From the IMG/VR virus record IMGVR_UViG_2698536428_000019: 38,544 nucleotides of DNA. One strand, written 5' to 3'. The notes under the pieces are model-generated. The model saw nothing but the letters and a program-made list of their open reading frames with translations, was not told the DNA's origin and searched no databases. Position 1 is the first letter of the stretch; each line of letters opens with the position of its first letter. Below are positions 1-26,524 of this stretch, piece after piece. The DNA comes from a virus (taxonomy: Duplodnaviria; Heunggongvirae; Uroviricota; Caudoviricetes). The position numbers were made by a program, and so were the translations under genes.

Positions 1-1293
<1,293 letters not shown>

Positions 1294-1949: not shown

Positions 1950-2311
1950 TATCGACTGAACCCGACAACCGGATAGCGGGGGCTTTCACCCCCGCTGCGG
2001 TTTCTTACTGTTTACACTGCAAGAACGCCGCAAATTCTGACCACATGATGTTAAGTCTGAACTCACACGGCGAACGGTGTATCATCCAGATGGCCAACAA
2101 CATGGTTAAGCATAAAATGCTCACGATGATCGTTTTTTGCAGCATAGCGCTTGACTCCTTTTACAGGGAGGCGCTAACCTTCCACTTGTCTAGGGTAGGA
2201 ATGGTTAGGGCCTCGGGTTAAACAATATGTTTGACTCGGGGCCTTTCCACATCCGGCCTTCAGGTTTTCCTTCCAGCCGTCAGCCGAAAGGCACCCGCGC
2301 GTAATGTACTG
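1950..2311. repeat. direct repeat, copy 2 of 2; abuts the prophage ogr end
   Basis: Same unit as 1478..1835; its right edge encodes the last codons of the ogr-like ORF. Confidence 0.85.
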
Positions 2312-2582
2312 GTTTTAAAGCCATACCGCAATCCTCCAGTTGTAGCGTTAACTGACTGCGTCCCTGATGGGATTTGCGCATTGTCTCCCGTGGAATATCT
2401 TTATCGTGGAAGATCAACTGAGGCTGGCCAATAATTCTGTGCACACTTTCCATTGTTGAAAATGTGGCGCTGCACTCAAGGTTATTGCACTGATAGTATT
2501 TGTAGCGGATGGTGCCGGTATCATTGGCGGCTTTACTGGTACGGATCCGGGCAGATGCGCCGCAGAATGGACAATGAAACAT
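2280..2582 (-). CDS. ogr: Ogr-type zinc-finger late-gene activator (P2 Ogr / 186 delta family), C-terminally extended
   Basis: MFHCPFCG...YYQCNNLECSATF... matches the Ogr C4 zinc-finger pattern; start chosen at the internal ATG with SD aggggg (ORF track starts further upstream). About 100 aa versus about 72 aa for P2 Ogr. Confidence 0.8.
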   Translation of the reverse strand: MFHCPFCGASARIRTSKAANDTGTIRYKYYQCNNLECSATFSTMESVHRIIGQPQLIFHDKDIPRETMRKSHQGRSQLTLQLEDCGMALKPVHYARVPFG

Positions 2583-2626
2583 TGATATACCCCCCTGGCT
2601 GAACTGGGGTTGAACTCGTCGCCATT

Positions 2627-3751
2627 CTAACCATTGCTTTCCTTTTCGGCTATCCACTCGGGTATTCTTGCCTCCAGTTCAAGCCTTGTGGTGAAGCCGC
2701 TTCCGTCGATATTGTGTTCCACTTTTGCAATGAGCCAGTCCTGATTGTCTATTTCGGTTTTAAAGCCGGTTACCGTGCCATGCATTTCAGGGTAAAGCTC
2801 CGCTCTGCCCCGGGCCAGCGTGATGGAGAATTCAGCCGCACCGCGCTGTAATTGCTGCCACCTGGCGGCAGCTGCGCGCTGTGCAGCAATTTCATTTGGG
2901 TAGGTTTTTCTCAGAACGAACACGTTACCTTCTGCCCCCTCCATGTAGCTGCCTTCCCGGCTGCTGCTCTTTTCAGCGTGAGTTTTTCGTTTTTTTATGT
3001 TGACGGCTTTCTTTTTGCCATGATTCAAATCCAGCCAGTACGCCTTCACCCCTGTGTATGCCTGGCGATCGGCTATTCTGAACTGGTGACTGTCTCCGTC
3101 ACTGCGTGCCAGTGCAAATGAGGGGAGTGGGCGCCCGTCAGCTGTCACGCCGCCACCCGGCAGAATGAACAGCAGACAGCCATTTTTGACGGTAGTGATG
3201 GCTCCCAGCATATCAGCCATGCGGGTAAGGAATGACATGTCGCTTTCTTCCGTCTGGTCGGCATGATCGATTTCAATATCCATAAGCATATCGCTTATCT
3301 GGGCTTTCAGTCCGTAACGGTGGGCAATAGCGGAAACCACGCGTTCAACAGTCACGTCGTGCCAGGATACTTCCCGTTTGACGTTAAATTCCTCCCTGAA
3401 GTCTGCGCTGTTTGCACTCAGTGTCAGCCGATCCGGAGGTCCTTCATGAGCGACCTCATCAACAATGTAGGTGCCTTTATCAACCAGAGGCTCTCCCTTC
3501 CATCCCAGCATGACTCTGATGTGTGTTCCCCGCCCGGGGAGAGCCAGCTGCCCGTCGGCATCATCCAGCACAAGAGTGACCCTGTCTGCTTCAAACCCCC
3601 GGTTGTCTGTCATGGAAAGCGATATCACCCGGTTATTCAGTTCCTGAAGAGTGTTTTTATCCTGCTCCCTGTCCAGTGAAACGCTGAAATCAGGCATTTT
3701 CACCAGTTCTTTCAGGGGGGAATAAACCGTGTTACCGTTCAGCAATACCAT
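2627..3751 (-). CDS. phage tail protein D (late control gene D family)
   Basis: 375 aa from the internal ATG at 3751 with SD ggagga; ORF-track start at 4111 is an upstream read-through overlapping the sheath gene. Length and position next to ogr match P2 gpD. Confidence 0.85.
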   Translation of the reverse strand: MVLLNGNTVYSPLKELVKMPDFSVSLDREQDKNTLQELNNRVISLSMTDNRGFEADRVTLVLDDADGQLALPGRGTHIRVMLGWKGEPLVDKGTYIVDEVAHEGPPDRLTLSANSADFREEFNVKREVSWHDVTVERVVSAIAHRYGLKAQISDMLMDIEIDHADQTEESDMSFLTRMADMLGAITTVKNGCLLFILPGGGVTADGRPLPSFALARSDGDSHQFRIADRQAYTGVKAYWLDLNHGKKKAVNIKKRKTHAEKSSSREGSYMEGAEGNVFVLRKTYPNEIAAQRAAAARWQQLQRGAAEFSITLARGRAELYPEMHGTVTGFKTEIDNQDWLIAKVEHNIDGSGFTTRLELEARIPEWIAEKESNG

Positions 3752-3816
3752 AATTCCTCCGTTTTTCCCGCCACAGTTGCATACCAGAAACACCACCGGA
3801 ATGAGTTTGGGTTGTA

Positions 3817-3834
3817 TGTGTATTGCGAGAAACC
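3817..3834. promoter_or_regulatory. imperfect Ogr-type dyad (TGT-N12-ACC) midway between divergent D and sheath genes
   Basis: TGTgtattgcgagaaACC; centre about 3825 versus midpoint 3824 between the D ATG (3751) and sheath ATG (3897). Resembles the TGT-N12-ACA element of P2 late promoters. Confidence 0.3.
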
Positions 3835-3896
3835 GCAGTTCGTGAAAAAGCTCCCCGTGTTCGTAAAGATCTCTGCTGAACTCACACCAATGCAGG

Positions 3897-5093
3897 GTGA
3901 ATAATATGGCTGAAACCCGTTTCCATGGCGTGCGGGTCCGGGAGAATGCGGATCTGGTCACGGCCATTAATGATATTGACTCCAGTGTGATTGGTATCGT
4001 GGCTGTTGCTGATGATGCTGATGCAAAAACATTTCCGCTGGATAAGCCGGTGCTCCTGACGCGCGTTATGGATGTGCTGGGTAAGGCCGGGAAAACCGGC
4101 ACGCTGTACAAAAGTCTGAAAGCTATTGCCGATCAGGTCAGCACCAGAGTTGTTGTGGTGCGGGTTGCTGCTGCGAAGGAGGGGGATGGTCAGCCGACAC
4201 AAACGCAGCTTGTTATTGGTGAGGTCAAAAATGACGGAACCTATACAGGCATGCAGGCGCTCCTGGTGGCTGAACAGAATGAGGCTGTTGGTGTTCGTCC
4301 CAGGATCCTGGCCGTGCCATCGCTTGACACCAAAGAGGTGGTGGCGGCACTGGTAACCGTCGCGAAAAAGCTGCGTGCCTTTGTGTATGCGGGCTGTCCC
4401 GGCTGTAATACCGTGCAGGAGGCCGTTACCTGGCGCGCCGATCTTGCTCACCGTGAAGTTATGCTGATCTGGCCTGATTTTATCGCGTACAACCCTAACA
4501 GTGGCCAGAATGAGGCTTTTCCTGCATCTGCGTATGCGTGCGGGTTGCGTGCGAAGATTGACCACGAGCAGGGCTGGCATAAATCCCTGTCCAATGTGGC
4601 AGTGAATAATGTCCTGGGTATTTCTGTGCCGGTGTTCTGGTCGCTCCAGGCAGAGGACAGTGACGCGGAAACCCTCAATGACAAGGAGATCACCACACTC
4701 ATTAAACGTAACGGCTTCCGTTTCTGGGGTAACCGGACTCTCGACACCACTACCTACACCTTTGAGACCTACACGCGTACGGCGCAGTCGCTGGCGGATA
4801 CCATCGCCGAATCGCAGTTTGAAACCGTGGACAAGCCGCTGACGCCGTCGAACGTGAAGGATGTGTTAAGCGATATCCGGGCAAAACTGAGTGCCCTTGT
4901 GACAGCGGGTAAACTTATCGGGGCAGAGTGCTGGTATGACGTGGTGGATAACGGCACAACGGATCTGCGTCAGGGGATTGTGCGGATCCGCTACAGATAT
5001 ACGCCGGTACCACCGCTTGAAGATCTGGAGCTTCACCAGACGTTTACTGATGAGTTCTTTGACGGTGCATTTGCATCACTGGGAGGTGAGTAA
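3897..5093 (+). CDS. tail sheath protein (P2 FI homolog)
   Basis: 398 aa; translation aligns along its length with P2 FI as recalled (e.g. KPVLLT, LRAF.Y, WPDF, GFRFWGNRT, YTPVPPLE). Confidence 0.95.
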   Translation: MNNMAETRFHGVRVRENADLVTAINDIDSSVIGIVAVADDADAKTFPLDKPVLLTRVMDVLGKAGKTGTLYKSLKAIADQVSTRVVVVRVAAAKEGDGQPTQTQLVIGEVKNDGTYTGMQALLVAEQNEAVGVRPRILAVPSLDTKEVVAALVTVAKKLRAFVYAGCPGCNTVQEAVTWRADLAHREVMLIWPDFIAYNPNSGQNEAFPASAYACGLRAKIDHEQGWHKSLSNVAVNNVLGISVPVFWSLQAEDSDAETLNDKEITTLIKRNGFRFWGNRTLDTTTYTFETYTRTAQSLADTIAESQFETVDKPLTPSNVKDVLSDIRAKLSALVTAGKLIGAECWYDVVDNGTTDLRQGIVRIRYRYTPVPPLEDLELHQTFTDEFFDGAFASLGGE

Positions 5094-5602
5094 TGGCGGT
5101 ACCAAACAAACTTCGCGTTTTCACGGTGTACATCGATGGCGAAAACAAGCTGGGGCGGGTGACGTCCTTCACGCCGCCTAAACTGACCCGAAAAACGGAG
5201 TCCTTCCGTGGTGCCGGGATGCCCGGCAGTGTTTCCGTCGACTTTGGTCTTGATGATGGTGCACTGGATCTCTCTTTTGCGGTAGGCGGCGCAGATGCCC
5301 ACCTTTTCTCCCGTTATGCCGGGTCACTTGATGAAGTCCGTCTTCGCTTTTCCGGTGAGTACTATTCGGATGCGGATATCAGATATGTGGATATTGAGGT
5401 CCGCGGGCGCATCACTGAAATCGATATGGGGGAGGCGAAGCAGGGTGAAGACACTGAGCACAGTTATTCGATGAAAAACACCTGGTACAGACTGAGTGTG
5501 GACGATCGGGAAAAAATCGAATTTGATGTGCTGAATTTTATCTGGCGCATTGACGGTAAGGATGTGCTGCCGGATCGCACCCGCTCGATGCTGGGCTTCT
5601 GA
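5093..5602 (+). CDS. tail tube protein (P2 FII homolog)
   Basis: 169 aa; TAATG overlap with the sheath stop and SD gggaggtg; position and size match FII. Confidence 0.9.
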   Translation: MAVPNKLRVFTVYIDGENKLGRVTSFTPPKLTRKTESFRGAGMPGSVSVDFGLDDGALDLSFAVGGADAHLFSRYAGSLDEVRLRFSGEYYSDADIRYVDIEVRGRITEIDMGEAKQGEDTEHSYSMKNTWYRLSVDDREKIEFDVLNFIWRIDGKDVLPDRTRSMLGF

Positions 5603-5649
5603 TTATTGTTTAACAGAGAACGGCGGGGATCCCGCCGTGGAGACTGAAA

Positions 5650-6039
5650 ATGGATAAAGAAACGGAAATGGCCACTGACACTGCCGTCAGTAACGGGGAG
5701 GCTTCCGCGGTGGCAGTTGCCGCTACGGCTGCACCTAAGAACGTGGTGAAGCTGACGGTGCCTGTTGTGCGCGGAGATGTGTCGTACAGTGAAATTAAAA
5801 TCGGACCGCTGGCGAATCAGGCCGGATCTCTGCGTGGGCTGTCTTTGCTTGCGCTTTACAACATGAACTGTGATGCCATGGTCACCTGGCTTGCGCGTGT
5901 GACAGAGCCAAAACTTAAGGAGGCCGAAATGTATGCCATGAATACGGCGGATTTTACGGCGCTGAGCTCGGCGGCGGTTAATTTTTTCGCACCCTCGGGG
6001 TCGAATGCACCGGCACCGGAGAACACGGCAGAGCCGTAA
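5650..6039 (+). CDS. tail assembly chaperone (P2 E homolog)
   Basis: 129 aa acidic/Ala-rich protein between tube and tape measure; SD ggag upstream. Confidence 0.8.
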   Translation: MDKETEMATDTAVSNGEASAVAVAATAAPKNVVKLTVPVVRGDVSYSEIKIGPLANQAGSLRGLSLLALYNMNCDAMVTWLARVTEPKLKEAEMYAMNTADFTALSSAAVNFFAPSGSNAPAPENTAEP

Positions 6040-6197
6040 CCTGTCTTTGCTTTGACTGCATTGAAGATCCCGTTGCGGATATTGCTGTTATTTTTAACTG
6101 GCCGCCCGCAGAGATATTTGCAATGACGCCTGCAGAGGTGGTCGCCTGGCGTGAGCGGGCGGCTGCCAGAAGCGGAAGTCACAATCATGATGAATAA
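5650..6197 (+). CDS. E+E' frameshift-extended chaperone (programmed -1 frameshift at 5982..5988)
   Basis: In-frame slippery heptamer T_TTT_TTC; the -1 frame is open from 5988 to a TAA at 6195..6197, which overlaps the tape-measure ATG. Confidence 0.5.
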
Positions 6198-8979
6198 TCT
6201 GCATATCAGGGTTGCTCTGGCGGCGGCAGACACCCTGACACAACCTCTCAGGCGCGCCCGCGAAACCGTGGGCGCGCTTTCTGATTCCCTCCGTGAAACT
6301 CAGGACTCCATCCGCTCGCTTGAACGGCAGAGTGAAGCCTTTGCTGCGGCACAGACTAAATTTGACGAAGCCACCCGGAAAATTGCCGCTGTTCAGCAGC
6401 AACTGAACCGTCTGCAGCAGGCGGAGCGTGAGGGTACCGTGCTCAGTGAACGGCAGCGTGAAATGATGGCTTCGCTGACCACCCGGCTTGAACGTCTGAA
6501 CCGGGTGAGGGATGTACATCAGCGACGCCTGGAGGATTCACGCCGGGAGCTGGAGAGACACGGTATTGCCGCAGAGGGCAGCAGTCAGACCATACAGGCA
6601 GCCATTCGCCGGACGGCAGAGTATAACGAAGAGCTGGCGCGACAGCGGCAGGCACTCGCACAGGTGACCCGTGCACAGCAACGCTATGAACAGGCGCAGG
6701 AGCGACTCGGGCGGATACGTAATGCCGGTGCGGCGGCACTGGCTGCCGGTGCAGCAGGACTTTACGCTGGCGGGCGTGCTGTTGCGCCGGTGATGGATCT
6801 CCAGCGTCATGGTGCCGTCATTGCGGCTCAGGCAGGAGAGGGCGCGTCAGATGCCGTGGGGTATACCGGGGTTATAAACCACATGGTTCATACCGGTATC
6901 ACACCGGATGCACAACTGGCGGCTGAAGCTGTGGGTGCTGTCCGCTCCACTCTGGGTGGGCTGGGGGCGGTTAGTGAGAATGAACTGACCCGAATCACCC
7001 GAAAAATGCTGGATATGCAGGCCGTGATGGGGGGCGATATCCCGCAGCACATTCAGGCGGCTGCCATCATGATCAAAAACGGTCTTGCACGCAGCAGTGA
7101 CGAGGCGGTTGATCTGATGGTGGCGGGCATGCAGCGCATGGGGCCGGTTATGCGCGATGAGCTGCCTGAGATCCTTCACGAGTATTCGACCCATTTTCGT
7201 AACATGGGGCTGACAGGGTCGGAAACCATGACGCTCCTTGCGGATATGGCGCAGCAGGGGAAGTTTGCGCTGGATAAAACCGGCGATGCCATCAAGGAGT
7301 TCAGTATTCGCGGCTCCGATATGTCAAAGGCGAGTGCTGAAGCGTATGCGCTTATCGGGCTGGATGCAGCCAGGATGTCATCGGCTGTAGCCAGTGGTGG
7401 AACGGCTGCACGGGCTGCGCTGCAGAAAACAGCCTCGGGTCTGTTGCAGATCGTCGATCCGGCTGAGCGGGCCAATGCGGCCATCGCACTTTTTGGTACA
7501 CCGGTTGAAGATCTGTCTGTCGATCAAATCCCTGCCTTTCTTGGCGCGCTGGCGCGGGTGTCTGACCGTATGGCTGACGTGTCTGGTGTGGCGGACCGGA
7601 TGGGGCAAACCCTGCGTGACAATCTGAGTGGTGATGTGGCGCGGCTTACCGGGACGTTCAGCGCGCTGAGAAGTGGGATTATCGGGGAGATTACGGACGA
7701 TCTGCGTGGGCTTGTCCGGATGGCCACAGCGTGGGGTGAGCGTCTGCAGGCGTGGGTGAATGCGCATCCGGAACTGGTGCGAATGATTGCGCTGACGACG
7801 GGAGCGGTGCTGGCGTTAACCACAGCGATGGGGGCGTTGTCCGTTGCGGCCTGGATGGTTGTCGCACCGTTACTGAAACTGCGTCTGGGGCTTGCCCTGC
7901 TTCGCGCGATCCCGGCCGGACTCTCTGTTGCCGGTACGCTGTTTGGCGGACTGACGGGTGTGATTTCAGCCGTGGGGGCTGCGCTGGGGGCGCTGACCTG
8001 GCCGGTTGTGGTGGCGGTGGGAGCCCTGGTCGGTGGTGCTCTGCTGATCTGGCGCTACTGGGATCGGGTCAGGGCGTTTGTGAGCGGATTTATTGAAGTG
8101 GTACAGTCAGCACTGGCGCCCTTCATGGCGACAGCCTCCCGTTTTGCGCCGCTGCTGGATCTGGTTTCAGGGGCACTGTCCCGTATTCTGGGATGGTTTA
8201 AATCCCTGTTAACGCCAGTCTCCTCCACGCGTGATTTGCTTGAGCAGTGCACCTCTGCCGGGCAGACGTTCGGGAGCACTCTGGCCGGTGCGTTAGCCAC
8301 GGTTTTTTCGCCCCTGAAAGCTCTGATTGACGGTCTGGCGTGGGTGCTGGAAAAACTCGGTGTTCTGCCCGGTGAAGCTGAGCGGGTTAAGCGAAAACTG
8401 GATGAGGCCCGTAAAACGCCGGTGGCATGGGAGTGGGATCCGGAACAGAAAAAAATGGTTCAGAAGGCGTGGCACTGGTCGCCTCCTGGTGGGGCCAGTG
8501 TGCCTTCCGGCGCCTCCGGTACACAGCCTCCGCCGGTGGCGCTCCCTGCGGGGATAGCGCCGGACGGTAACCGTAACGTTCTCCGTCACCTGAAAGGCAT
8601 TGAGGGGAATACCGGTGGTCTGCTGGCTGAAAACCGTAAACGTATCGGACCCGGAGATATTGTGTTTAAACATCTTCCACGGGCGCTGGCGGTCCGGGGG
8701 CAGTGGCATGAACCTGTCGTTGCGCCGTCTTCCGGCGGAATGCGCGCGCTGCCACAGGAGGAGATTCAGGTGCAGCAATGGCCGACGGCACGCCCGGCGC
8801 CACGAATGCACCAGCAGGAAACCTTCGCCAGCGCCTTTCAGGGGGAGATACATGTGCATCTTCACGGGGTGAGTTCGCATAATCCCCGGGAACTGGCGCG
8901 CATGGTTGGTGACGCTGTCAGGGCGGAAATGAACAGAATGGCACGTGCCGGAACCGGCAGCTTCCGCGATCGCGACTGA
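6187..8979 (+). CDS. tail tape measure protein (P2 T homolog)
   Basis: About 930 aa with coiled-coil N-terminus and Gly/Ala-rich hydrophobic segments; start taken at MMNNLH (first ATG of the ORF is at 6151). Confidence 0.9.
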   Translation: MMNNLHIRVALAAADTLTQPLRRARETVGALSDSLRETQDSIRSLERQSEAFAAAQTKFDEATRKIAAVQQQLNRLQQAEREGTVLSERQREMMASLTTRLERLNRVRDVHQRRLEDSRRELERHGIAAEGSSQTIQAAIRRTAEYNEELARQRQALAQVTRAQQRYEQAQERLGRIRNAGAAALAAGAAGLYAGGRAVAPVMDLQRHGAVIAAQAGEGASDAVGYTGVINHMVHTGITPDAQLAAEAVGAVRSTLGGLGAVSENELTRITRKMLDMQAVMGGDIPQHIQAAAIMIKNGLARSSDEAVDLMVAGMQRMGPVMRDELPEILHEYSTHFRNMGLTGSETMTLLADMAQQGKFALDKTGDAIKEFSIRGSDMSKASAEAYALIGLDAARMSSAVASGGTAARAALQKTASGLLQIVDPAERANAAIALFGTPVEDLSVDQIPAFLGALARVSDRMADVSGVADRMGQTLRDNLSGDVARLTGTFSALRSGIIGEITDDLRGLVRMATAWGERLQAWVNAHPELVRMIALTTGAVLALTTAMGALSVAAWMVVAPLLKLRLGLALLRAIPAGLSVAGTLFGGLTGVISAVGAALGALTWPVVVAVGALVGGALLIWRYWDRVRAFVSGFIEVVQSALAPFMATASRFAPLLDLVSGALSRILGWFKSLLTPVSSTRDLLEQCTSAGQTFGSTLAGALATVFSPLKALIDGLAWVLEKLGVLPGEAERVKRKLDEARKTPVAWEWDPEQKKMVQKAWHWSPPGGASVPSGASGTQPPPVALPAGIAPDGNRNVLRHLKGIEGNTGGLLAENRKRIGPGDIVFKHLPRALAVRGQWHEPVVAPSSGGMRALPQEEIQVQQWPTARPAPRMHQQETFASAFQGEIHVHLHGVSSHNPRELARMVGDAVRAEMNRMARAGTGSFRDRD

Positions 8980-8989
8980 GGTGAAAAAG

Positions 8990-9481
8990 ATGATGATGAT
9001 TTATGGGATGTTTGTGTTTCAGTTAAGTACCCTGCCGCATCAGCAGGTGGAACAGAGTAAACGCTGGCGACACGTCAGTAATGAACGGGTTAACCGTTCA
9101 TCCTCCTGGCAGTATATTGGCTCTGGTGAAGATCACATCACGATGTCCGGTGTGCTCTGTCCGGAAATCACCGGCGGGGAGGTGTCACTGACTGCCCTGA
9201 ACACCCTGGCCTACACAGGATTACCCTGGCCACTGATTGATGGTGTCGGACAGATTTACGGGATGTATGTCATTACGGAAATCAGGACCACCCGTCAGGA
9301 GCTGGATCGCTATGGCATGGCCCGCAAAATTGAGTTCACTGTCAGCTTTCAGCGATGCAATGAAGATCTGCGTGAGCGTCTTCAGTCGGGCTCGGTGGGT
9401 GATCTGATGGCAGGATTAAAAAACAGCGCGTCGTCGGCCCTGTCGTCGGCGTCCTCTGCGCTGTCTGGTCTCATGTTGTGA
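8990..9481 (+). CDS. tail protein U homolog
   Basis: MMMIYGMFVF...WPL(I/L)DG.G.IYGMYVI matches P2 gpU; SD gaggtg; ORF-track start at 8945 is upstream of the RBS-supported ATG. Confidence 0.9.
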   Translation: MMMIYGMFVFQLSTLPHQQVEQSKRWRHVSNERVNRSSSWQYIGSGEDHITMSGVLCPEITGGEVSLTALNTLAYTGLPWPLIDGVGQIYGMYVITEIRTTRQELDRYGMARKIEFTVSFQRCNEDLRERLQSGSVGDLMAGLKNSASSALSSASSALSGLML

Positions 9482-9491
9482 AGGTCACTGT

Positions 9492-10079
9492 TCAGGCTTC
9501 GGCTTCTTTTCCCCAGCCAACCTTATAGTCCAGAATCGCCGCCGTATCGTTCAGGGCGGCGATCTCTTTTTTCATGTTACGCTGGCGAATGTGAATTTCC
9601 ATCCCTTTGGCAAACAGGGCTTTTGCGGCTGCATCGCTGAGGGCAATCAGCTCATCAGCAGAAACAGGAACATCGTTGTTCTGTGCATCAGTCCAGAAAA
9701 AATCCAGCGGCAGGATCCCCGCTTTTGCGGCAGCAACGGAAGGCTCAAGGCGGGCCTGCGTTGACTTCCCGTAGTCCCATTTCCTGCCGTTATGTTCAAA
9801 GGTGTAACTCGCCGCTTCCATCGCATTACGCCAGGCGTTGATTTCGTCGTTTTTCAGGCGTCTGGCGTTTTCCCTGTCAGTGTCGTTTTCCTGGTATTCA
9901 GATACAGAGCCGTGATTTCCTGCTTTCAGTTCGCCCCAGAGTTTTTTGCCGTGTGGCGAGTTGTCATATTCGGTTGCCGTATAGGGCAGCCAGCTCTCCT
10001 CCCCTTCAAACTGGATCTCACAGTCGATAGTGCCGTCACGGTTATAAGCGGCATTTCTTGCTGATTTGATTGTGTGCAT
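9492..10079 (-). CDS. tail fibre assembly protein (P2 G / Tfa family)
   Basis: 195 aa immediately downstream of the fibre gene; typical Tfa size and position. Confidence 0.85.
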   Translation of the reverse strand: MHTIKSARNAAYNRDGTIDCEIQFEGEESWLPYTATEYDNSPHGKKLWGELKAGNHGSVSEYQENDTDRENARRLKNDEINAWRNAMEAASYTFEHNGRKWDYGKSTQARLEPSVAAAKAGILPLDFFWTDAQNNDVPVSADELIALSDAAAKALFAKGMEIHIRQRNMKKEIAALNDTAAILDYKVGWGKEAEA

Positions 10080-10090
10080 GAGTCTCTCCG

Positions 10091-11431
10091 TCAGGCAATG
10101 CGCTCAAATATTCCGATTCCTGCGCCTGCATAAATGTCAGCGCAGGCCCGCCACGTGCCCGGTGGCCTGCGGTTTGTGTTCCAGTTTTGCATGGATTCAT
10201 AAAAACTGATTTCGAAGTCGGAATTAGTCATGCTCATCAGTCTGAGTTTACTGCCCGGGCGGGTATCTCCGGGCGCTATATTAATTCTGGCAGGATATAC
10301 CCCCTCGGCATCCGTTGCCGCCAGAATAAAGCTGCCCACATCCCAGAGTGTCCGCTGTGTTTTTGCCTGTGCAGCCTCCAGTGCTTGCCGTGCTTTCTGC
10401 CCGGCGTTTTCTGCTGCCGTCATGGCCGTCTTCACAGCTTTTGGTGTGGCAGCCAGCACTTCACTGTCACTGTCCGTTGCGCTGCTTAGCTGAACAATAC
10501 CTCGCTCTGTCAGGGAGGCATCGCCGGTCTGCGTGAGGGGGAGTATGGCAACCTCCTTCCATTCAGACCACGGCCCGTTGCCGGTGAAGTTACCTGTCAC
10601 TGTCCGGATAAATTTTCGTGGAGGATTCCAGGCGGTGTATTCCTGCTGACAGAATCCCCATGCGCCCATCCTGATGGATAATGATCCGGCTGATGTTACC
10701 GGGTAGTGATGCGCAGTGGTGGCTCCGCTGTTGTTGGGCTGATAGTAGTCGCCATGATGTTCAGGTCTTCCCAGTGTATCCAGGTCCACGCTGAGGGCGG
10801 CTGTTGGTCTTGTTACTGCCAGCGCCTTAAGTGCTTTTATTGCTTTGGGTGTGGCTGCCCGGGTTTCATCATCACTGTCGGTTTCACTACTGAGCTGAGT
10901 AAATCCCTTACTGGTGGTTGTGGCATCCGGGTGTTTACCGTTTTGTTCATGCTGCTTTATCATTTCTGCCACGCCAGCCTGTGTTGCCATGGTGGTTGAT
11001 GAGTCGGCTGTCAGATTTACAGAGGCTTCGTTGCTCAGCAGAATCACCATGCGGAATACCTGTTCTCTGCCTGAGCCCTCATCAAGCTGCGGTTTGTAAC
11101 CTTCCGCAACATTACCCACGGCGATGAGTGTGCCTTTGCTGTCAAACAGACCGATTTCGCGGATCCAGAATCCTCCTTCATTCGCAGGAATGATCACTTC
11201 GGCGGTTAAAAAACTGGTGTTTTCCGCGTCACGGCTGACCCTGCTGACCTCGCCCCGCCAGACCTCTTTAACGAGAGCGGTTTGCGTGGCCAGTGGTTCT
11301 GTGGGTTTACCGTTACCGTCTCCGACGGCGATATGTGTCAGCGTGATCTTTTCTCCATCCGGTAACACCGCAGCTGCGAGGGCTGCTGTTCCGGCATTTG
11401 TGATAATGGTTTTGTATTTTGCGGCCATCAT
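10091..11431 (-). CDS. tail fibre protein (P2 H homolog)
   Basis: N-terminus aligns with P2 H (GGFW.RE(I/L)GL.D..GTLIAV.N.AE.YKP...EGSGR); internal repeat ...GFTQLSS.TDSD.E..AATPKA(I/V)K... Confidence 0.9.
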   Translation of the reverse strand: MMAAKYKTIITNAGTAALAAAVLPDGEKITLTHIAVGDGNGKPTEPLATQTALVKEVWRGEVSRVSRDAENTSFLTAEVIIPANEGGFWIREIGLFDSKGTLIAVGNVAEGYKPQLDEGSGREQVFRMVILLSNEASVNLTADSSTTMATQAGVAEMIKQHEQNGKHPDATTTSKGFTQLSSETDSDDETRAATPKAIKALKALAVTRPTAALSVDLDTLGRPEHHGDYYQPNNSGATTAHHYPVTSAGSLSIRMGAWGFCQQEYTAWNPPRKFIRTVTGNFTGNGPWSEWKEVAILPLTQTGDASLTERGIVQLSSATDSDSEVLAATPKAVKTAMTAAENAGQKARQALEAAQAKTQRTLWDVGSFILAATDAEGVYPARINIAPGDTRPGSKLRLMSMTNSDFEISFYESMQNWNTNRRPPGTWRACADIYAGAGIGIFERIA

Positions 11432-12054
11432 TACTCCTTGTCCGGTCTGATGGTTACTGTGATGCCTTCATAGGTGACTCCACCCGGGTGGATGTCACCA
11501 CTGACTGACAGCGGGCTTGTCAGTTCTGCTGCCGGATATACCACGATGGTTTCCCCGGTCAGCGTGGCCCCGGTTATGCGGGATATACCCCGTGCAACGT
11601 AGGTCATTTTCATGGCGGCAAGGTGTCGGCTTACCGGGCGAACGGTGGTAATCATTCGCTCCATCTCCTGCCGGGTTTCCTCTGTCAGTCCGCGCTCCGA
11701 TATGTCAATATCCAGCCTGAATGACCCCGGCGGATCGTTGTTCTCCCACCATTCTGTAATACTCAGTATCGCGCCGAAGGGCTCCACAGCCCGACGCATG
11801 GCGCTGATGGTGCCTTTGTGGCGGTGAATATGCCACGAGTCACGGATGATCTGACGACGTGCCTCTTCACTCCATGTTTCATCCCAGCGGTCAACGGAAA
11901 GCGCCCAGGCAAGCCATGGCAGCAGATGGGCTGGGCAGGTGTCGGGGTTCCAGAGGGTGTTGATATGGATCGGCAGCTCTGACAGGCGCTGAGCGCCCTG
12001 TTCCGAATGATGCAGGAAGGAGGGCGAGGATGGCGGCAGCAGTCGGTTATTCAT
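11431..12054 (-). CDS. baseplate protein I homolog
   Basis: LWNPDTCPA.LLPWLAWA.SVDRWDE and TEWWEN.DPPG.FRLDI motifs match P2 gpI; start may instead be the upstream ATG at 12063. Confidence 0.9.
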   Translation of the reverse strand: MNNRLLPPSSPSFLHHSEQGAQRLSELPIHINTLWNPDTCPAHLLPWLAWALSVDRWDETWSEEARRQIIRDSWHIHRHKGTISAMRRAVEPFGAILSITEWWENNDPPGSFRLDIDISERGLTEETRQEMERMITTVRPVSRHLAAMKMTYVARGISRITGATLTGETIVVYPAAELTSPLSVSGDIHPGGVTYEGITVTIRPDKE

Positions 12055-13888: not shown

Positions 13889-14514
13889 AGGTTGTTGATA
13901 ATGATTTCCGTCACTTTCTGTCTGTCGGCTTCACTGAATCCCAGCAGTTCGCGTTGCGGATAGCGGACGGCATTACCGGCAGAGACCAGTGACACTTCGC
14001 CGAACTGATGAACGCGGGCAATGCGGGCTGCGCGGCCTTCAAATCCCACGCTGACGCCGCCGGGATCGGTTTTTACCTTCAGAAAGCGGTTTGTCCGAAG
14101 CTGCTCAAACATGGGTGGACGCTTAATGGCGCTCTGCGTTCGCCTGCGGGTGTCAATTTCCAGGTATTCTTCAATATCGGCTTTGTGGAACGAGCGTATT
14201 CCCCGGCGCTCCGTGTCGTAACCGGTGATCATGGGGCCGTACCGGCCGGTTGTTGTCCGCCAGTTTTTCAGTCGTCTCACCTGAGTGCCGTTCCAGATGA
14301 ACACCACACCTGCCTGGACACGGAATACACGTTTTTTACGGGCGGGCCACCGGTTACCGTCCGGTGATTGTTGCGAACGTATACGCTTTTGTTGCGCGGC
14401 GCGGACAGCCTGACCGACAGCACGTGCTGTTTTGTTTATACCGGCAGCGGACAGACCACTGAGGATCTCCTGAAAGAGACCGTCCAGTCTGTGCAGGTCA
14501 TCCGGAGCCATCAT
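13870..14514 (-). CDS. virion morphogenesis / tail completion protein (P2 S-like)
   Basis: Start chosen at the ATGATG overlapping the R 3' end; the ORF-track start at 14616 would overlap R extensively. Confidence 0.7.
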   Translation of the reverse strand: MMAPDDLHRLDGLFQEILSGLSAAGINKTARAVGQAVRAAQQKRIRSQQSPDGNRWPARKKRVFRVQAGVVFIWNGTQVRRLKNWRTTTGRYGPMITGYDTERRGIRSFHKADIEEYLEIDTRRRTQSAIKRPPMFEQLRTNRFLKVKTDPGGVSVGFEGRAARIARVHQFGEVSLVSAGNAVRYPQRELLGFSEADRQKVTEIIINNLWRNTR

Positions 14515-14965
14515 TCTGACCCCATGTGACATCTTCGAGGGTGACGTGCCATGCTTCCAGGGCCCGGCTGACAGGCGGCTCTCCGATGTGTTCTGCGTGA
14601 ACAGTGCCATCATCATTACGGCGGATAATCACCCGCTCCCATACCGGGATTTCCAGCAGGATATCGGTGCTGTCGTCGTCATTGATGGCAACAGAAAATT
14701 TGATATCCCTGTTTTTCTCCGGATTAAGCAGGAGATCAGGCTGATTGCGGTACAGCCAGCGCATCAGCGGCACCATCAGTTCATCGAGATCCTGCGTGAA
14801 GTCCATGACAAAGATCCCAAGCGTGTAACGGTAAAGATATGAGGGGGATTCGCCGGTCGTCTCAATGCCTCCGTTATTCACATACACAGTGAATTTCTCC
14901 GGGTTGGCGCGACACCATGGGCAGGCGTCAGTCATGGCGTCGCGCAGGGTGTTAATTTTCAGCAT
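14498..14965 (-). CDS. tail completion protein R homolog
   Basis: 155 aa, same size and position as P2 gpR upstream of S and V. Confidence 0.8.
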   Translation of the reverse strand: MLKINTLRDAMTDACPWCRANPEKFTVYVNNGGIETTGESPSYLYRYTLGIFVMDFTQDLDELMVPLMRWLYRNQPDLLLNPEKNRDIKFSVAINDDDSTDILLEIPVWERVIIRRNDDGTVHAEHIGEPPVSRALEAWHVTLEDVTWGQNDGSG

Positions 14966-14980
14966 GCCCCCTCCTGTGTG

Positions 14981-15154
14981 TTATGGCATGTTCTGGTTGT
15001 TCTGTTGTGCAGACTTCTGACTGATTTTTTCAGCGGCGCGCTCGTCAATTTTTCGCTGAAAATAATTTCTGATAACACTGTAACCGCCGCTGATCAGATA
15101 CAGCGCGCAGACTGCAGTACAGAAATACAGCATGATCTGATGAATGAATAACAT
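14981..15154 (-). CDS. small single-pass membrane protein (57 aa), unknown function
   Basis: MLFIHQIMLYFCTAVCALYLISGGY then a basic tail; ATG preceded by SD gaggtg (the ORF-track start at 15169 lacks an SD). Confidence 0.45.
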   Translation of the reverse strand: MLFIHQIMLYFCTAVCALYLISGGYSVIRNYFQRKIDERAAEKISQKSAQQNNQNMP

Positions 15155-15299
15155 AATCACCTCACACAAATGATTGACATAACGATGTCTGGCGTTTTAA
15201 AAAAATGAATAACAATAATAAACACTCTCCATAATTCCTCTTGCGCTCCCGTCAGGTATCTTCTCCTCTAAGTCTTGCCTGCCGGGAGCCTCTTTTTTC

Positions 15300-17345
15300 T
15301 TATGCGGCGTTGCTGTTATTGATATCCACCGTCACATACTCAATCAGCACGGGGTAGGTGTCCTGGTTACTGGTGATATCCGTGATCAGCAGTTTGTCGT
15401 TATCCAGTCCTGCCGCCGGGCATTTCGCCAGATTAAAGGCCGCCTGGGTCTGACCGTTGATGACCGGTGTCACGCTGATGCTGTTATTTCCGGCAAACCG
15501 GAACACCACGTTGTGCCAGTTATGATTAAATGCCCCGAAGGTTCCCAGTTTTGCATTCTGTTGTTTGTGCTGCATCAGATTCAGGTTTGCGCTGTCGCTC
15601 TGGATGAAGAAGGCTGCCAGCATATTGTTTCCTGTGCTTCCCTCCGGAACAACGTTTTCAGGTAGCTGAGAAACCGGCCAGTACAGAGCCATGGCGAAGC
15701 GGTTTTCTGCCAGCTGAACACCTTCCGGGATTTTGAAACGAAAGGCAATTTCCCCGCCTTTCTGAAGTAATTCAGTTGCTTTACTTGCAGGCACATCGTG
15801 GGCGATTTTCCAGGCTGTTTGTTGCCCCTGGACTTTTTCCACTCGCACGGCTTTACCGCTCTCAGCAGCAGAGTCATTTACGACGGAGGCTTTTCCATCT
15901 GCCCCTGTCCAGCCCTGTTCTTTCAGTTTCCCTTCCTGTGCGTCTGCGCGATAAGCGACGGCCGTTGTTCTTGCCGGTGATGACTGCGTACCTGCGCCCG
16001 GCTGAGGTGCAGGTGTGGAGGGCTGCGGGCTTTCCGTGGTGGTGCTGTCTGAACCGGCCGTGGCTGGAGGTGCTGCGACCACGCTGAACGGTGCGGGTGC
16101 ACCTTTCAGGAAGGCGACGGTCTTCCCGGCATGCATCAGGATCGCCGTTGCCAGGCGGTCAGAAATAATGCCGCGGCGGGCCCATGAACTGAAATGCGTG
16201 GCGCGATCTGAAGAGGTCCAGTTTCCGTTACTACGGGATGCAGCACCGTAATAACCGGCTTCTGCCAGGTCAGGATCTTCGGCAGGCAGGTTTGTTGGCG
16301 TGTTAGCACCTTTCTCATCGGTCATCAGGGGCACAAAATAAATTTTTTGCGCTTCTTTGTTCTGATATGCACCGTAAACCACCGGGTACTGAGAGGTATA
16401 TTGTTGTTTCCAGATATAGGTGGTATCGCCGCAAATCCAGGGAACAAGTGATGCGTTGCCTCCGGTGCACTGTGCAGCATATGCGCTGAGATCGGCGCGG
16501 AACTGATTCACCATGTTCAGGAATAATTGCGGGTACTGTGCGTATGTTGCTGATTTCAGATCAAACTCTCCCAGCATCCAGACCACGGATAACAGGACGT
16601 TTTTGGGGTTTTTATCCAGCGCGGCTTTTGTACGGGTAAGCAGATCGTTATACAGCGGTTTGCCGACGCCCCACAGGGATGATTCGGCCGTTGCTCCTGA
16701 AGATTCACTGAATGCCCCCTCAGCGCCGGAAGTAAGCGCTGACCCTCCACGACAGCAAGGTACCAGGAGGATCCCTGCATTTTTCGGGATAAACGCCAGT
16801 AATTTTTTGGCAATATGTAAACCCTGTCCGACGCAGCCATACTGACCTTTTGACAGATCGGCGTTCGGATGATTAAGGCTGCTCATATCCTGTACATCAT
16901 GGAGACAGTGATCTGCCGGAATAATATCGTTATAGGTACATGCAGCGCCGCCCGGTGTTACCGTACTGCGACGCGCTAACTGTTTAATTCGTGGATCAGG
17001 ACTGTCGAATGTATCGGGTAATGGCAGCCCCTCACCGTATGCCATGCCATTGGACTGACCAGCCAGTGGCACCACATAATAAAACTCTGGCTCAGTTGTG
17101 TGTCCAGTGTCGTATCCGTCGGTAGTGCCCGGTACGGGGTTTTCCTCGCCTTCTGGTACCGGAATGGCTGATGGCAGGTCTCTGTCAGTGACCAGTGCCT
17201 GCATCAGGTAAAATGGTGCTCCCGGCTCTGATGCTGAGACAGGTCCCCCAAGAAGTCCCCATCCTTCCCTGAGCATGGGCGCAAGTTTTTCGGCAAGTTC
17301 CTTGTTCGTCATTGCCGTCACAAGCTGATAATGTTTCGGTACCAT
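15300..17345 (-). CDS. nanS: NanS-p-like sialate 9-O-acetylesterase (DUF1737 N-terminus plus SGNH/SASA-type esterase domain), prophage cargo
   Basis: 681 aa from the ATG with SD ggag (MVPKHYQLVTAMTNKELAEKL...); architecture matches prophage-encoded NanS-p esterases of EHEC prophages as recalled. Confidence 0.75.
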   Translation of the reverse strand: MVPKHYQLVTAMTNKELAEKLAPMLREGWGLLGGPVSASEPGAPFYLMQALVTDRDLPSAIPVPEGEENPVPGTTDGYDTGHTTEPEFYYVVPLAGQSNGMAYGEGLPLPDTFDSPDPRIKQLARRSTVTPGGAACTYNDIIPADHCLHDVQDMSSLNHPNADLSKGQYGCVGQGLHIAKKLLAFIPKNAGILLVPCCRGGSALTSGAEGAFSESSGATAESSLWGVGKPLYNDLLTRTKAALDKNPKNVLLSVVWMLGEFDLKSATYAQYPQLFLNMVNQFRADLSAYAAQCTGGNASLVPWICGDTTYIWKQQYTSQYPVVYGAYQNKEAQKIYFVPLMTDEKGANTPTNLPAEDPDLAEAGYYGAASRSNGNWTSSDRATHFSSWARRGIISDRLATAILMHAGKTVAFLKGAPAPFSVVAAPPATAGSDSTTTESPQPSTPAPQPGAGTQSSPARTTAVAYRADAQEGKLKEQGWTGADGKASVVNDSAAESGKAVRVEKVQGQQTAWKIAHDVPASKATELLQKGGEIAFRFKIPEGVQLAENRFAMALYWPVSQLPENVVPEGSTGNNMLAAFFIQSDSANLNLMQHKQQNAKLGTFGAFNHNWHNVVFRFAGNNSISVTPVINGQTQAAFNLAKCPAAGLDNDKLLITDITSNQDTYPVLIEYVTVDINNSNAA

Positions 17346-17355
17346 AGTGACTCCG

Positions 17356-17631
17356 TTATTTTTCATGAGTGTTCATTCGTGCTGTCCGCTGCCGCTCCAG
17401 CCCGGCAATGGCGGCTTTATCGGCATTACAACTGTCCAGGGCATCTACCAGTCGGTCTCCCCAGTCAGCCACATCAGCCCATATCATGTGTTGCGGCAGC
17501 ACCGGTACCGGTGTCTGTCTGGTCAGACTTTCCGGCACGCTCCCGCAAATGACGCCGGTTTTCAGCGGCGCTGGCGTGTTGTTGCAGGCTGTCAGCAACA
17601 TCAGCAGGGGGAGGAGTGCGTGCGCACTCAT
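17356..17631 (-). CDS. o-spanin lipoprotein (Rz1 / LysC-like)
   Basis: MSAHALLPLLMLLTAC: signal peptide with lipobox; overlaps the 3' end of the i-spanin gene in another frame. Confidence 0.7.
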   Translation of the reverse strand: MSAHALLPLLMLLTACNNTPAPLKTGVICGSVPESLTRQTPVPVLPQHMIWADVADWGDRLVDALDSCNADKAAIAGLERQRTARMNTHEK

Positions 17632-22303: not shown

Positions 22304-22375
22304 GGAAATTCTCCATAACCTGGTCGTTTTTCCCATGATGGCGGCAGATAACGGTGTGTCTCAAGGTGCTTAAGT

Positions 22376-22393
22376 TGTATGGCGACGGGGACA
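22376..22393. promoter_or_regulatory. Ogr-type late promoter dyad TGT-N12-ACA between divergent O and P
   Basis: TGTatggcgacggggACA; centre about 22384.5 versus midpoint 22381 between the O ATG (22303) and P ATG (22459). Confidence 0.45.
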
Positions 22394-22458
22394 ACGCGGG
22401 CTGGTATCAGGCGGTATTGCTGAGGCTTAATCTTGCCCTGTTAATGTCAGGGGGTGCA

Positions 22459-25291: not shown

Positions 25292-25306
25292 GACTCTCCA
25301 GCTCTC

Positions 25307-25810
25307 TTAACGGAATGCGGATGGCGTTCTTCTTTGCAGCTTGCTGATAATATGTATCTTCATGCTGTTTACTATCGGCAGCCATTCCCTGTCACCGTCT
25401 CCGTTGATGACCACGCGAATGGAGGTATCATCTTCCACGCGAACCCGAAGAGATACACCGTCTTTTCCGACGGAATGTAACTCCATTGCCAGGACTATGT
25501 TTACCGACTCTCCTTCATCGTGTGAGTCAACCCATGTTCTTACAGCCATCCGGAATATGTTATCTGTGTCGGTTGCAATCATATTTACCGGAAATGGCCT
25601 GAAGTCCCGATCGTTTCTGCACGGAAACCCCGTATCAACGTAACGATGATGCTCGCCGTCTTTGTCTTCCCATGTCTCTGAAGGCAATTCCAGCCACTGC
25701 TCATAAAAAGCAACCAGCTTTTCAGCCTGATTGCGCAGAATCCCTGTAACCTCCCGCCTCGCGTCCCGGCTCTTTTTGTTTGCCAGGTACAAATCGCGAA
25801 AATGGCTCAT
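25307..25810 (-). CDS. hypothetical protein (167 aa) in the portal-cos accessory slot
   Basis: ORF with SD aaggag 7 nt upstream of the ATG; soluble, acidic; no family recognised by eye. Confidence 0.6.
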   Translation of the reverse strand: MSHFRDLYLANKKSRDARREVTGILRNQAEKLVAFYEQWLELPSETWEDKDGEHHRYVDTGFPCRNDRDFRPFPVNMIATDTDNIFRMAVRTWVDSHDEGESVNIVLAMELHSVGKDGVSLRVRVEDDTSIRVVINGDGDREWLPIVNSMKIHIISKLQRRTPSAFR

Positions 25811-26293
25811 GTCGCTCTCCTTTGGTCTGTTTATGCCAGCCTGTATTCTGCGCTCACCTCATATTGTGCGCAAGTTTTCACCCGTGAATGACTGATACTT
25901 TAAATTCTATTAACTTTATGATTTCAGTGATTTTTGTCTCTCTTTTTTATCCCGTTCGTCACGTCCGTTTCCCTCCCGATCTCCGACCTCGCCAGACGCA
26001 ATCAGACGCATTCTGACGGCCTGTTTCCCTGACCATGTTTTGATGTGGTTTTTCAAAACTGGCTTCACTGCGCGCGTATCATGCGCAATACGACCCCAAA
26101 TAAAGCAACCTGCCTTCCACCCCTCAATTCGTGCGCCCTTCCCTCGTCGCCTGCGCGCTGCAATTGCCTCGTTTTTCGTGCACCGTGCAAAGTGGCTTCA
26201 GCCCGCGCCGTTACTGGGCTGAGTGGGGATGAAACACATAAGAAAAATTGTGCAATTTCGTGCACTTTTGTGCAGTTTGAAACGGGTATCTGT

Positions 26294-26510: not shown

Positions 26511-26524
26511 ATTGGTAAAGAAAT

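Follow-up and report, generated by a model that had tools for sequence, protein, structure and literature searches.

An inverted FI–U tail block in an Escherichia coli P2-like prophage is the layout of a whole enterobacterial phage clade and borders a putative shared Ogr site

In phage P2 (Peduovirus), the late tail genes lie on one strand in the order V-W-J-I-H-G, FI-FII-E-T-U-D and ogr. The F operon unites seven of them, FI, FII, E (with its E/E' frameshift), T, U, D and ogr, on the strand of V-G, with the start of D overlapping the stop codon of U. The activator site of its promoter pF, GTTGT-N12-CCAAC, is located 82.5 nt upstream of FI, with the hexamer GAAAAT at 45 nt and a mapped transcription start at +56.5 to +58.5. 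Two further P2 late operons are divergent, and the P2 record NC_001895 annotates between them a single "activator binding site; pO, pP promoters" at 3057-3087. This partial dyad lies midway between the two operons, with hexamers 44 nt from its centre; the mapped pO and pP starts (3016 and 3127) are 111 bp apart, each 55.5 nt from the centre.

Rearrangement of late-gene blocks has occurred repeatedly among P2-like phages, with a redistribution of TGT-N12-ACA sites, as described for Stenotrophomonas phage Smp131 (PMC3931495). Phage particles or plaques have been described for P88, PhiSM, SEN4/5 and the KSP20-like PP4 (PMC5285337, PMC6456863, PMC5261728, PMC9826266), phages of the lineage analysed here. 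Our window is the whole stretch of DNA of the virus record IMGVR_UViG_2698536428_000019 (38,544 nucleotides), an E. coli P2-like prophage whose integration site adjoins serS.

Gene content and orientation of the tail module

The tail module of the window comprises the following genes:

2280-2582, minus strand: ogr-type late activator gene, 100 aa, with a C-x2-C-x24-C-x4-C zinc finger (Pfam Ogr_Delta, 58.3 bits; cutoff 26.3)
2627-3751, minus strand: D, encoding gpD, the tail/baseplate hub or "late control D" protein (PHROG 52, Pfam Phage_GPD)
3906-5093, plus strand: FI, tail sheath (PHROG 23, Pfam Phage_sheath_1)
5093-5602, plus strand: FII, tail tube (Pfam Phage_tube, 166 bits)
5650-6039, plus strand: E, tail assembly chaperone (PHROG 103)
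5650-6197, plus strand: E+E', predicted -1 frameshift product, with a slippery T-run TTTTTTC at approximately 5981-5987 read from the sequence
6187-8979, plus strand: T, tape measure protein (PHROG 28, Pfam PhageMin_Tail)
8990-9481, plus strand: U, final gene of the inverted block, encoding the tail protein gpU (Pfam Phage_P2_GpU, 132 bits)
9482-9491, no strand: gap between the stop codons of the convergent U and G genes, 10 bp
9492-10079, minus strand: tail fibre assembly-type gene in the G position, at the end of the V-W-J-I-H-G operon (PHROG 1141, Pfam DUF4376)
beyond the G-position gene, minus strand: H, I, J, W and V

The homologue set of the P2-like (Peduoviridae) late tail module is thus present in the window. 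FI, FII, T, U, D and Ogr all score above their Pfam gathering thresholds, and identities to the P2 proteins are in the range of 46-52%: 46% for U, 47% for D (with an unalignable N-terminus of ~19 aa), 48% for the sheath and 52% across 54 aa for Ogr. The predicted -1 frame following TTTTTTC near the end of E stays open until 6197, and the position equivalent to the E' segment carries a "GpE family" ORF in RefSeq. Outside the tail module, a PADLOC scan of the cargo ORFs returned no credible defence match, only two marginal ones (E about 1e-3, ORF 27426-27833).

The canonical P2 order on a single strand is not found in the window, where the strand of FI-U is opposite to those of both V-G and D-ogr. 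D is split off from the remaining F operon and faces away from the sheath gene, and ogr follows 3' of D on the same strand after a gap of 44 bp (2583-2626). A first-pass annotation of this DNA had proposed the same strand assignments for ogr and D, for the five genes between G and D and for the fibre and baseplate genes, and the gene calls and the PHROG and Pfam matches agree with it. The divergence of D and the sheath gene likewise stands, but the distance of 145 bp given there is valid only for a GTG start at 3897; homologues, and a 99.8% identical locus as annotated in RefSeq, start the sheath gene at the ATG at 3906, so that the distance becomes 154 bp. At the other end of the block, U and G converge with 10 bp between their stop codons, as previously noted. 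No terminator-like site and no hairpin was found at this U/G junction: its folding z-scores (-0.27 and -1.20) are unremarkable, and terminator-like matches in the region 2000-12000 are at chance level (14 versus 10.8 expected).

Distribution of the inverted layout

The region 2200-11500 is colinear in 12 complete E. coli genomes at 95-99.8% identity, and one IMG/VR contig shows 100% protein identity for 11/11 genes checked. Among the best viral contigs with a sheath at least 75% identical, 80/80 carry ogr and D on the minus strand, FI to U on the plus strand and H, I and J on the minus strand, with W and V also on the minus strand where the query set contained these two genes. The same layout is found in 20 species-representative loci of other Enterobacterales (L085-L103, L125), of which the 17 titled ones include members of Salmonella, Enterobacter, Erwinia, Pantoea, Serratia, Raoultella, Kosakonia, Trabulsiella, Yokenella, Photorhabdus, Xenorhabdus, Chania, Morganella and Klebsiella, as well as in the four named phages checked (P88_4B11, SEN5, phiT5282H and KSP20). 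A match to the sheath is present in roughly 510 phage records.

In a simple neighbour-joining tree of the sheath, midpoint-rooted and without bootstrap, the 25 inverted loci descend from one node that includes no canonical locus; the 58 canonical loci branch outside it. The window belongs to this "inverted F block" clade: its D gene is divergent from FI, its FI-U genes converge with the fibre genes, and its sheath lies inside the clade, sharing 58-79% identity with other members and no more than 53% with loci of canonical order. A single origin of the inversion would be the most parsimonious, if unproven, reading of this tree. Within the clade, members of one genus are expected in ICTV practice to share ~70% nucleotide identity over the whole genome. 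Megablast, run with the 9.3-kb region only, aligned no more than 9% of it to any phage record, at ~76% identity; since the similarity to P88-type phages is this patchy, the window probably represents a different genus, and the result for this region argues against membership in Xuanwuvirus.

The first-pass annotation regarded the inversion as unusual and took the lack of inverted repeats at the breakpoints as keeping a misassembly possible. The repeats are indeed missing. Between 3700-3950 and 9400-9580, exact inverted matches reach no more than 7 nt, the length most often obtained with shuffled sequence, and a search of both junctions for inverted repeats, direct repeats and recombinase-type sites, as the annotation had proposed, yielded nothing exceeding chance. 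We nevertheless give virtually no credence to a misassembled tail block or to one that was flipped recently in this strain only, for which just the difference from P2 would also speak: the 12 colinear genomes were assembled independently, isolated phages and over 100 loci spanning many genera have the same layout, and conservation extends to the promoter region at the junction. An equally negligible chance remains for a programmed invertible segment of the Mu G, P1 C or P88 fibre type that switches between two orientations. P88-type relatives do possess a DNA invertase gene beside U together with an invertible fibre segment, but the 10-bp gap between G and U in the window holds no invertase gene, and flanking inverted repeats that could represent crossover sites of the Gin/Cin/Hin/Pin type do not rise above chance. 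Moreover, the opposite orientation occurs in none of more than 100 clade loci (0 of >100), and turning the block into the P2 orientation would cost D its own promoter region, which is conserved throughout the clade.

Synteny and the single sheath clade thus make the inverted orientation the norm for this lineage, an outcome that the first-pass annotation itself had listed as refuting its reading. Inherited and fixed across an entire clade of working phages, the inverted block is therefore ordinary, not an anomaly or an assembly error; the earlier view that the arrangement is functional rather than scrambled is borne out. For annotation and prophage typing, the layout can serve as a clade marker of a large enterobacterial P2-like group (P88, SEN4, phiT5282H, KSP20) and is no reason to mark a prophage as scrambled or misassembled. 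It is already present in public phage records. We found no explicit discussion of the orientation in the literature on P88, PhiSM, SEN4/5 and PP4/KSP20; Casjens & Grose 2016, who reportedly defined P2-like subclusters, lay outside this search.

The D/FI spacer and its predicted late promoters

The divergent spacer and the O/P region of the window contain the following elements:

3752-3905, no strand: D/FI divergent intergenic region, putative bidirectional late promoter region, 154 bp
3773-3781, minus strand: predicted extended -10 element of pD, TG-c-AACTGT; predicted start ~3766, 55.5 nt from the dyad centre
3811-3832, no strand: conserved Ogr-type partial dyad GTTGT-N12-AGAAA; core TGT at 3813-3815 and AGA at 3828-3830, centre 3821.5
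3865-3870, plus strand: predicted -10 element of pF, AAAGAT; predicted start ~3877, 55.5 nt from the dyad centre
22374-22395, no strand: late activator dyad GTTGT-N12-ACAAC shared by O and P, centre 22384.5, in a 155-bp O/P intergenic region

The length of the D/FI spacer is kept at 149-159 bp in 19 diverged lineages (18 lineages and SEN5, the latter with 157 bp). One GTTGT-N12-A[C/G]A dyad is conserved across these lineages, with an AGG variant in a single locus (L088), and an alignment of 15 non-redundant lineages with 45% mean identity places the most conserved columns in the GTTGT half-site and at A+7/A+9. The dyad has the form of the activator sites that NC_001895 lists for pF and pP/pO. 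Its centre lies 70.5 nt from the ATG of D and 84.5 nt from that of FI. The right half-site in the window reads AGA, not ACA; degenerate right half-sites (CCA) also occur in P2 pF and pO. The conserved GTTGT-N12-AGA supports the earlier proposal of an Ogr-type site between D and the sheath gene that closely resembles the one between O and P.

The O/P site of the window can be used as an internal reference for the D/FI site. Its TGT-N12-ACA core is present at 22376-22393, as described in the first-pass annotation, and -10-like hexamers flank its centre at 45 nt towards O and 44 nt towards P. Upstream of R/S/V, no pV-type Ogr site was identifiable by eye.

Motif counts alone are of little help. 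The bare TGT-N12-ACA occurs 8 times in the window versus 10.35 expected by chance and is not enriched, and the extended GTTGT-N12-[AC][CG]A occurs 8 times versus about 4.3 expected and is not rare. Since the motif is not rare within the window, we dropped motif counting in favour of comparative conservation, and the case rests on conservation and position.

Analyzing the flanks of the dyad, we found that in 19/19 inverted-clade lineages an nAnnnT hexamer starts 44-45 nt to either side of its centre; these lineages are mutually related, so that the counts are not independent. On the D side, the hexamer is preceded by TGn in 16/19 lineages; in the window it reads AACTGT and matches TATAAT at 2/6 positions. 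As a control, we inspected 20 canonical-order relatives, in which the FI-side hexamer is present in 20/20 but a hexamer on the opposite side in only 4/20. The distance from the dyad to FI is alike in both groups (79.5-82.5 nt in canonical and 80.5-88.5 nt in inverted loci). Because both -10-like hexamers lie in a geometry similar to that of pP/pO, we infer a bidirectional Ogr-dependent promoter pair at D/FI, consisting of pF and a new pD that would drive D-ogr. Binding of Ogr, both transcription starts and the co-transcription of D and ogr are predicted here from sequence. The extended -10 element on the D side could render pD partly independent of the activator.

This element also lends some weight to a different view, in which the dyad serves pF only and D is expressed from an independent promoter, such as an activator-independent extended -10 promoter, or under another regulator. 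Promoters with TGn can act without an activator, and a (CG)n run is conserved in the pD spacer of most relatives, but not in the window. We nonetheless consider this view unlikely, since the D-side hexamer keeps the same 44-45 nt from the centre as its FI-side counterpart in all 19 lineages, as in P2 pP/pO, and the length of the spacer is preserved. In addition, transcripts from a constitutive pD would extend into ogr, 44 bp beyond D, and the late genes should then switch on in lysogens. Very improbable, in turn, is the register favoured by the first-pass annotation, in which the functional Ogr site is the TGT(3817-3819)-N12-ACC(3832-3834) at the exact midpoint between the D and sheath genes. 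That sequence exists, and its centre (3825.5) is closer to the geometric midpoint, but it is 4 bp off the conserved site at 3813-3830. It is misaligned with the invariant GTTGT of the 18 other lineages and of the O/P site of the window, with which the register 4 bp to the left aligns, and only the register centred at 3821.5 gives both hexamers the 44-nt distance to the centre that is seen at P2 pP/pO.

Proposed history and comparison with known systems

Returning to the shared-site reading, we consider it likely that a single ancient inversion of FI-FII-E/E'-T-U relative to P2 became fixed in one clade of enterobacterial P2-like (Peduoviridae) phages, of which this E. coli prophage is a member. 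The late promoter pF and its Ogr-binding dyad would have moved with the flipped block and come to lie back-to-back with D, which stayed in place beside ogr. One dyad-symmetric Ogr site (centre 3821.5) would then serve two divergent late promoters, pF for an FI-FII-E-T-U transcript and the new pD for a transcript of D and probably ogr. It is the match between the geometry of D/FI and that of the shared activator site at P2 pP/pO that suggests two promoters. This reading predicts two late starts 111 bp apart, ~3766 on the minus and ~3877 on the plus strand, both relying on one shared site.

With less confidence, we lean towards the idea that the dyad symmetry of the Ogr site allowed the inversion to be tolerated and then fixed: the flip of pF with its operon would have put the site 55.5 nt upstream of a nascent promoter of the stranded D, providing a second bidirectional late promoter in the style of pP/pO and a shortened positive feedback loop from Ogr through pD to D-ogr. 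If true, this would be a clean natural case of an operon split by inversion without a new regulator, in which expression of the hub protein D is uncoupled from that of the sheath and tube; it would offer a modest, tidy example of a symmetric activator site that lets a late operon split yet keep the same regulator. The inverted tail block opens no new kind of system. The layout itself is known, and only the proposed promoter pair is modestly new.

The closest described systems are P88 and P88_4B11 (Peduoviridae, Xuanwuvirus) and Citrobacter phage PhiSM, which match the window in gene order and strands (V W J I H G against U T E' E FII FI, followed by D and ogr). P88-type phages have a D/FI spacer of 157 bp with the same site, there GTTGT-N12-AGAAC, and they share with the window a Hok/Mok-type gene after ogr. 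Their sheath and D proteins are 76% and 77% identical to those of the window, whereas the tape measure protein reaches 35-40%, and between G and U, where the window has only 10 bp, they carry a DNA invertase along with an invertible fibre segment. Similar to the window, SEN4/SEN5 (Salmonella, Senquatrovirus), phiT5282H (Enterobacter, Novemvirus) and KSP20 (Serratia) have D divergent from FI and FI-FII-E-T-U opposite to the baseplate and fibre genes; SEN5 features a perfect TTGT-N12-ACAA dyad with hexamers 44 nt off on both sides. Their sheaths are 58-73% identical to that of the window, their cargo genes differ, and 150-200 bp separate U from the fibre-assembly gene, compared to 10 bp here.

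Relative to P2, the window has the same F operon genes, but FI-U is flipped and D-ogr forms a separate divergent unit, while the distance from the pF site to FI is nearly unchanged (82.5 nt in P2 and 84.5 nt in the window). The pP/pO arrangement of P2 is kept at O/P in the window and would be repeated at D/FI; the pP/pO starts were mapped experimentally (NC_001895 annotation), whereas those at D/FI are predicted, and the D-side element carries an extended -10 TG that P2 pP/pO lack. Other rearranged P2-like phages have different breakpoints: in Smp131 and in Xanthomonadales, V-W joined the F operon, and in the Moraxella prophage L151 the V-H operon is flipped, with FI to D left intact.

The gene map around the inverted block

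The window holds a P2-like E. coli prophage adjoining serS. Family searches named the genes in and around the region at 3752-9491 that the first-pass annotation had flagged as inverted relative to P2; together with the two genes at the window ends, they are:

Genes of the window
1-1293, plus strand: serS
2280-2582, minus strand: ogr (late activator)
2627-3751, minus strand: D
3906-5093, plus strand: FI (sheath)
5093-5602, plus strand: FII (tube)
5650-6039, plus strand: E; a predicted −1 frameshift product, E', extends to 6197
6187-8979, plus strand: T (tape measure)
8990-9481, plus strand: U
9492-10079, minus strand: DUF4376 fibre-assembly-type gene in the G position
H, I, J, W, V and beyond: minus strand
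37537-38544: integrase gene, running past the right window end

The strands assigned earlier from ogr to V are correct, as is the 10 bp gap between the stop codons of U and the G-position gene. The reported D-sheath distance of 145 bp applies only to a GTG start at 3897; with ATG 3906, which homologues use and which RefSeq annotates at a 99.8% identical locus, it becomes 154 bp. The strands of O (minus) and of P and Q (plus) are those of P2 read backwards.

Within the block, a stable GC-rich hairpin (ACGGCGGGGATCCCGCCGT; 5620-5638, folding z-score −3.0) follows the tube stop (5602) and precedes the E start (5650). A possible role is as an attenuator or processing site that sets the abundant sheath and tube apart from the low-abundance E, T and U genes. 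Elsewhere, an insertion separates the lysis genes from R: a minus-strand 688-aa ORF (15300-17366) that contains DUF1737, a SASA-type carbohydrate (sialate O-acetyl) esterase domain and DUF6645. A 72%-identity sister lineage (L083) shares this ORF, which lacks a PADLOC match and may be cargo or a virion-associated esterase. An AT-rich island (~25300-27400; GC 43-47% versus ~55% elsewhere) adjoins the portal gene at the position of the P2 old/tin hotspot and holds a DUF4760 ORF (26525-27028, plus) and an unknown 167-aa ORF (25307-25810, minus), neither matching a PADLOC model. Between serS and ogr, the RefSeq annotation of the 99.8% identical locus places two Hok/Gef-family toxin genes (~1534-1674 and ~2005-2145, minus). 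Since phage P88_4B11 comparably has a MokW-like gene directly after ogr, hok-type cargo seems to have a conserved place at this end of the prophage.

Orientation of the block among relatives

The stretch 2200-11500 is colinear in 12 complete E. coli genomes (95-99.8% identity), and one IMG/VR contig has 100% protein identity with the window in 11 of 11 genes checked. Layouts were read by tblastn of window proteins against every fetched locus. All 80 viral contigs with a sheath at least 75% identical show ogr and D on the minus strand, FI, FII, E, T and U on the plus strand, and H, I and J on the minus strand. The same order, including W and V on the minus strand, recurs in 20 species-representative loci (L085-L103 and L125; sheath at least 58% identical). 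Titles, recoverable for 17 of these, include Salmonella, Enterobacter, Erwinia, Pantoea, Serratia, Raoultella, Kosakonia, Trabulsiella, Yokenella, Photorhabdus, Xenorhabdus, Chania, Morganella and Klebsiella. Loci with a sheath at most 53% identical carry D downstream of FI-U on the same strand (58 classed so in the sheath-tree set), mostly in the complete order V W J I H - FI FII E T U D - ogr, from which one Moraxella locus and Xanthomonadales depart. In a neighbour-joining tree of sheath proteins, 25 inverted loci group without any canonical locus inside.

The inversion is thus almost certainly real and typical of its clade. The first-pass annotation had framed it as unusual or a misassembly, which is refuted by the synteny comparison it had proposed: viral contigs, species loci and named phages show the inverted layout throughout the clade, as the lineage norm. 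Every outgroup, from Burkholderia to Xanthomonadales, keeps FI-U and D contiguous, which makes the P2 order ancestral; the block inverted together with its pF site (the late promoter of the FI operon), while D and ogr stayed put. One old inversion, inherited by the whole clade, is the simplest reading. The layout is compatible with a working phage, since P88, PhiSM, SEN4/5 and the KSP20-like PP4 are reported to yield particles or plaques (PMC5285337, PMC6456863, PMC5261728, PMC9826266).

A programmed invertible segment is countered by the junctions and by the single orientation seen: the opposite one occurs in none of more than 100 clade loci, and no inverted or direct repeats link both junctions above chance. 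Exact inverted matches reach 7 nt at most, the length that shuffled sequence gives most often, in agreement with the earlier remark that the breakpoints lack inverted repeats; the suggested search for recombinase sites at the two junctions likewise yielded nothing above chance. Such absence is the expectation for an ancient event. The D N-terminus and U C-terminus are unalignable, as would fit a breakpoint at the former U/D overlap. Beside U, P88-type relatives carry a DNA invertase and an invertible fibre segment, both absent from the window; its U/G junction spans 10 bp, compared with 150-200 bp in SEN5 and phiT5282H and an invertase gene in P88. No terminator-like hairpin was found at this junction, and F- and V-operon transcripts may overlap there as antisense RNA (9482-9491 and flanks).

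A symmetric promoter-like region between D and FI

The D/FI junction is a length-constrained, conserved and symmetric promoter-like region. In 19 inverted lineages (18 plus SEN5), the D ATG, with its Shine-Dalgarno sequence, lies 149-159 bp from the FI ATG. The spacers, otherwise only ~45% identical on average, share a single conserved dyad, GTTGT-N12-A[C/G]A (AGG in L088), whose centre is 67.5-79.5 nt away from the D ATG, in most cases 68.5-71.5, with 80.5-88.5 nt to the FI ATG. As previously proposed, an Ogr-type site is present here and the arrangement is functional, but the register given for the site (TGT3817-N12-ACC3834) was 4 bp too far right and fails to align with the invariant GTTGT.

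Elements of the D/FI region in the window
3813-3815 (TGT) and 3828-3830 (AGA): dyad aligned with relatives, centre 3821.5
3865-3870, plus strand: predicted pF −10, AAAGAT; predicted start ~3877
3781-3773, minus strand: predicted extended −10 of pD (predicted D promoter), TG-c-AACTGT; predicted start ~3766

Ungapped stacking of the inverted-clade sequences about the dyad centre showed conservation to be highest at the GTTGT half-site, at A+7 and A+9, at GTG +21 to +23, and at nAnnnT hexamers. In 19 of 19 lineages, a hexamer starts on either side at 44 nt from the centre, or at 45 nt in a few; the P2 divergent pair pP/pO and the window O/P region likewise have hexamers at 44-45 nt on both sides. 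The P2 reference record gives one "activator binding site; pO, pP promoters" at 3057-3087, with mapped starts at 3016 (P) and 3127 (O), 111 bp apart; its sequence places the site at GTTGT-N12-CCATC, centre 3071.5, each start 55.5 nt away. The two predicted starts in the window repeat this spacing: 111 bp separate them, and each is 55.5 nt from the centre. At P2 pF, the site reads GTTGT-N12-CCAAC; its centre is 82.5 nt upstream of FI, and the starts fall 56.5-58.5 nt from it. As a control, we took 20 canonical-order relatives with a recognisable pF dyad (centre 79.5-82.5 nt from FI): the FI-side hexamer occurs in 20 of 20, the other-side hexamer in only 4, so the D-side hexamer is specific to the clade that has D there.

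This symmetry suggests that a single Ogr site likely serves a shared bidirectional promoter. It would activate late promoters in both directions: pF for FI-FII-E-T-U, and a new pD for D and probably also for ogr, which lies 44 bp farther on. Such a site has dyad symmetry and is already bidirectional at pP/pO, so inversion would at once place it at the right distance from D. A TGn extended −10 is found on the D side in 16 of 19 lineages, and the main alternative is a pD independent of the dyad, for example an extended −10 promoter or one under another regulator; with hexamers equidistant from the dyad in every lineage, we regard this as rather unlikely.

In the predicted D promoter spacer, ~26-35 nt from the dyad centre on the D side, most clade members (L004, L085-L103, SEN5) also conserve an alternating (CG)4-5 run (CACGCGCGCG) that the window lacks. 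A search by eye for a pV equivalent upstream of R/S/V (14960-15300) gave no convincing Ogr-type dyad; a TGT-N12-ACA at 14390-14407 falls inside S.

Known phages and other rearrangements

Other P2-like tail modules were rearranged independently. In L151 (Moraxella sp. ATCC 23246), the V-W-J-I-H operon has been flipped so that it diverges from a FI-D operon left intact, and in Xanthomonadales (L146, L154-L164), V-W lies directly upstream of FI with J-I further upstream. A rearranged tail cluster with redistributed TGT-N12-ACA sites has also been described for Smp131 (PMC3931495). In many P88-type viral contigs, including L011, L012, L036 and L038, D and ogr are 1.1-4 kb apart rather than adjacent, implying variable cargo between them.

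Our literature search, of incomplete coverage, returned no paper that explicitly treats either the inversion or an activator site shared by D and FI. The inverted arrangement is already known from public records; bidirectional pD/pF is a small, testable addition. The genes of the region are ordinary P2-family tail genes in the layout of P88, PhiSM, SEN4/5, phiT5282H and KSP20, as seen in P88_4B11 (Xuanwuvirus), SEN5 (Senquatrovirus), phiT5282H (Novemvirus) and KSP20, a Serratia phage in whose record the gpD-like and gpFI-like genes are annotated on opposite strands. P88 is closest (sheath 76%), with patchy nucleotide similarity, and the window therefore probably represents a different genus-level lineage within the same clade.
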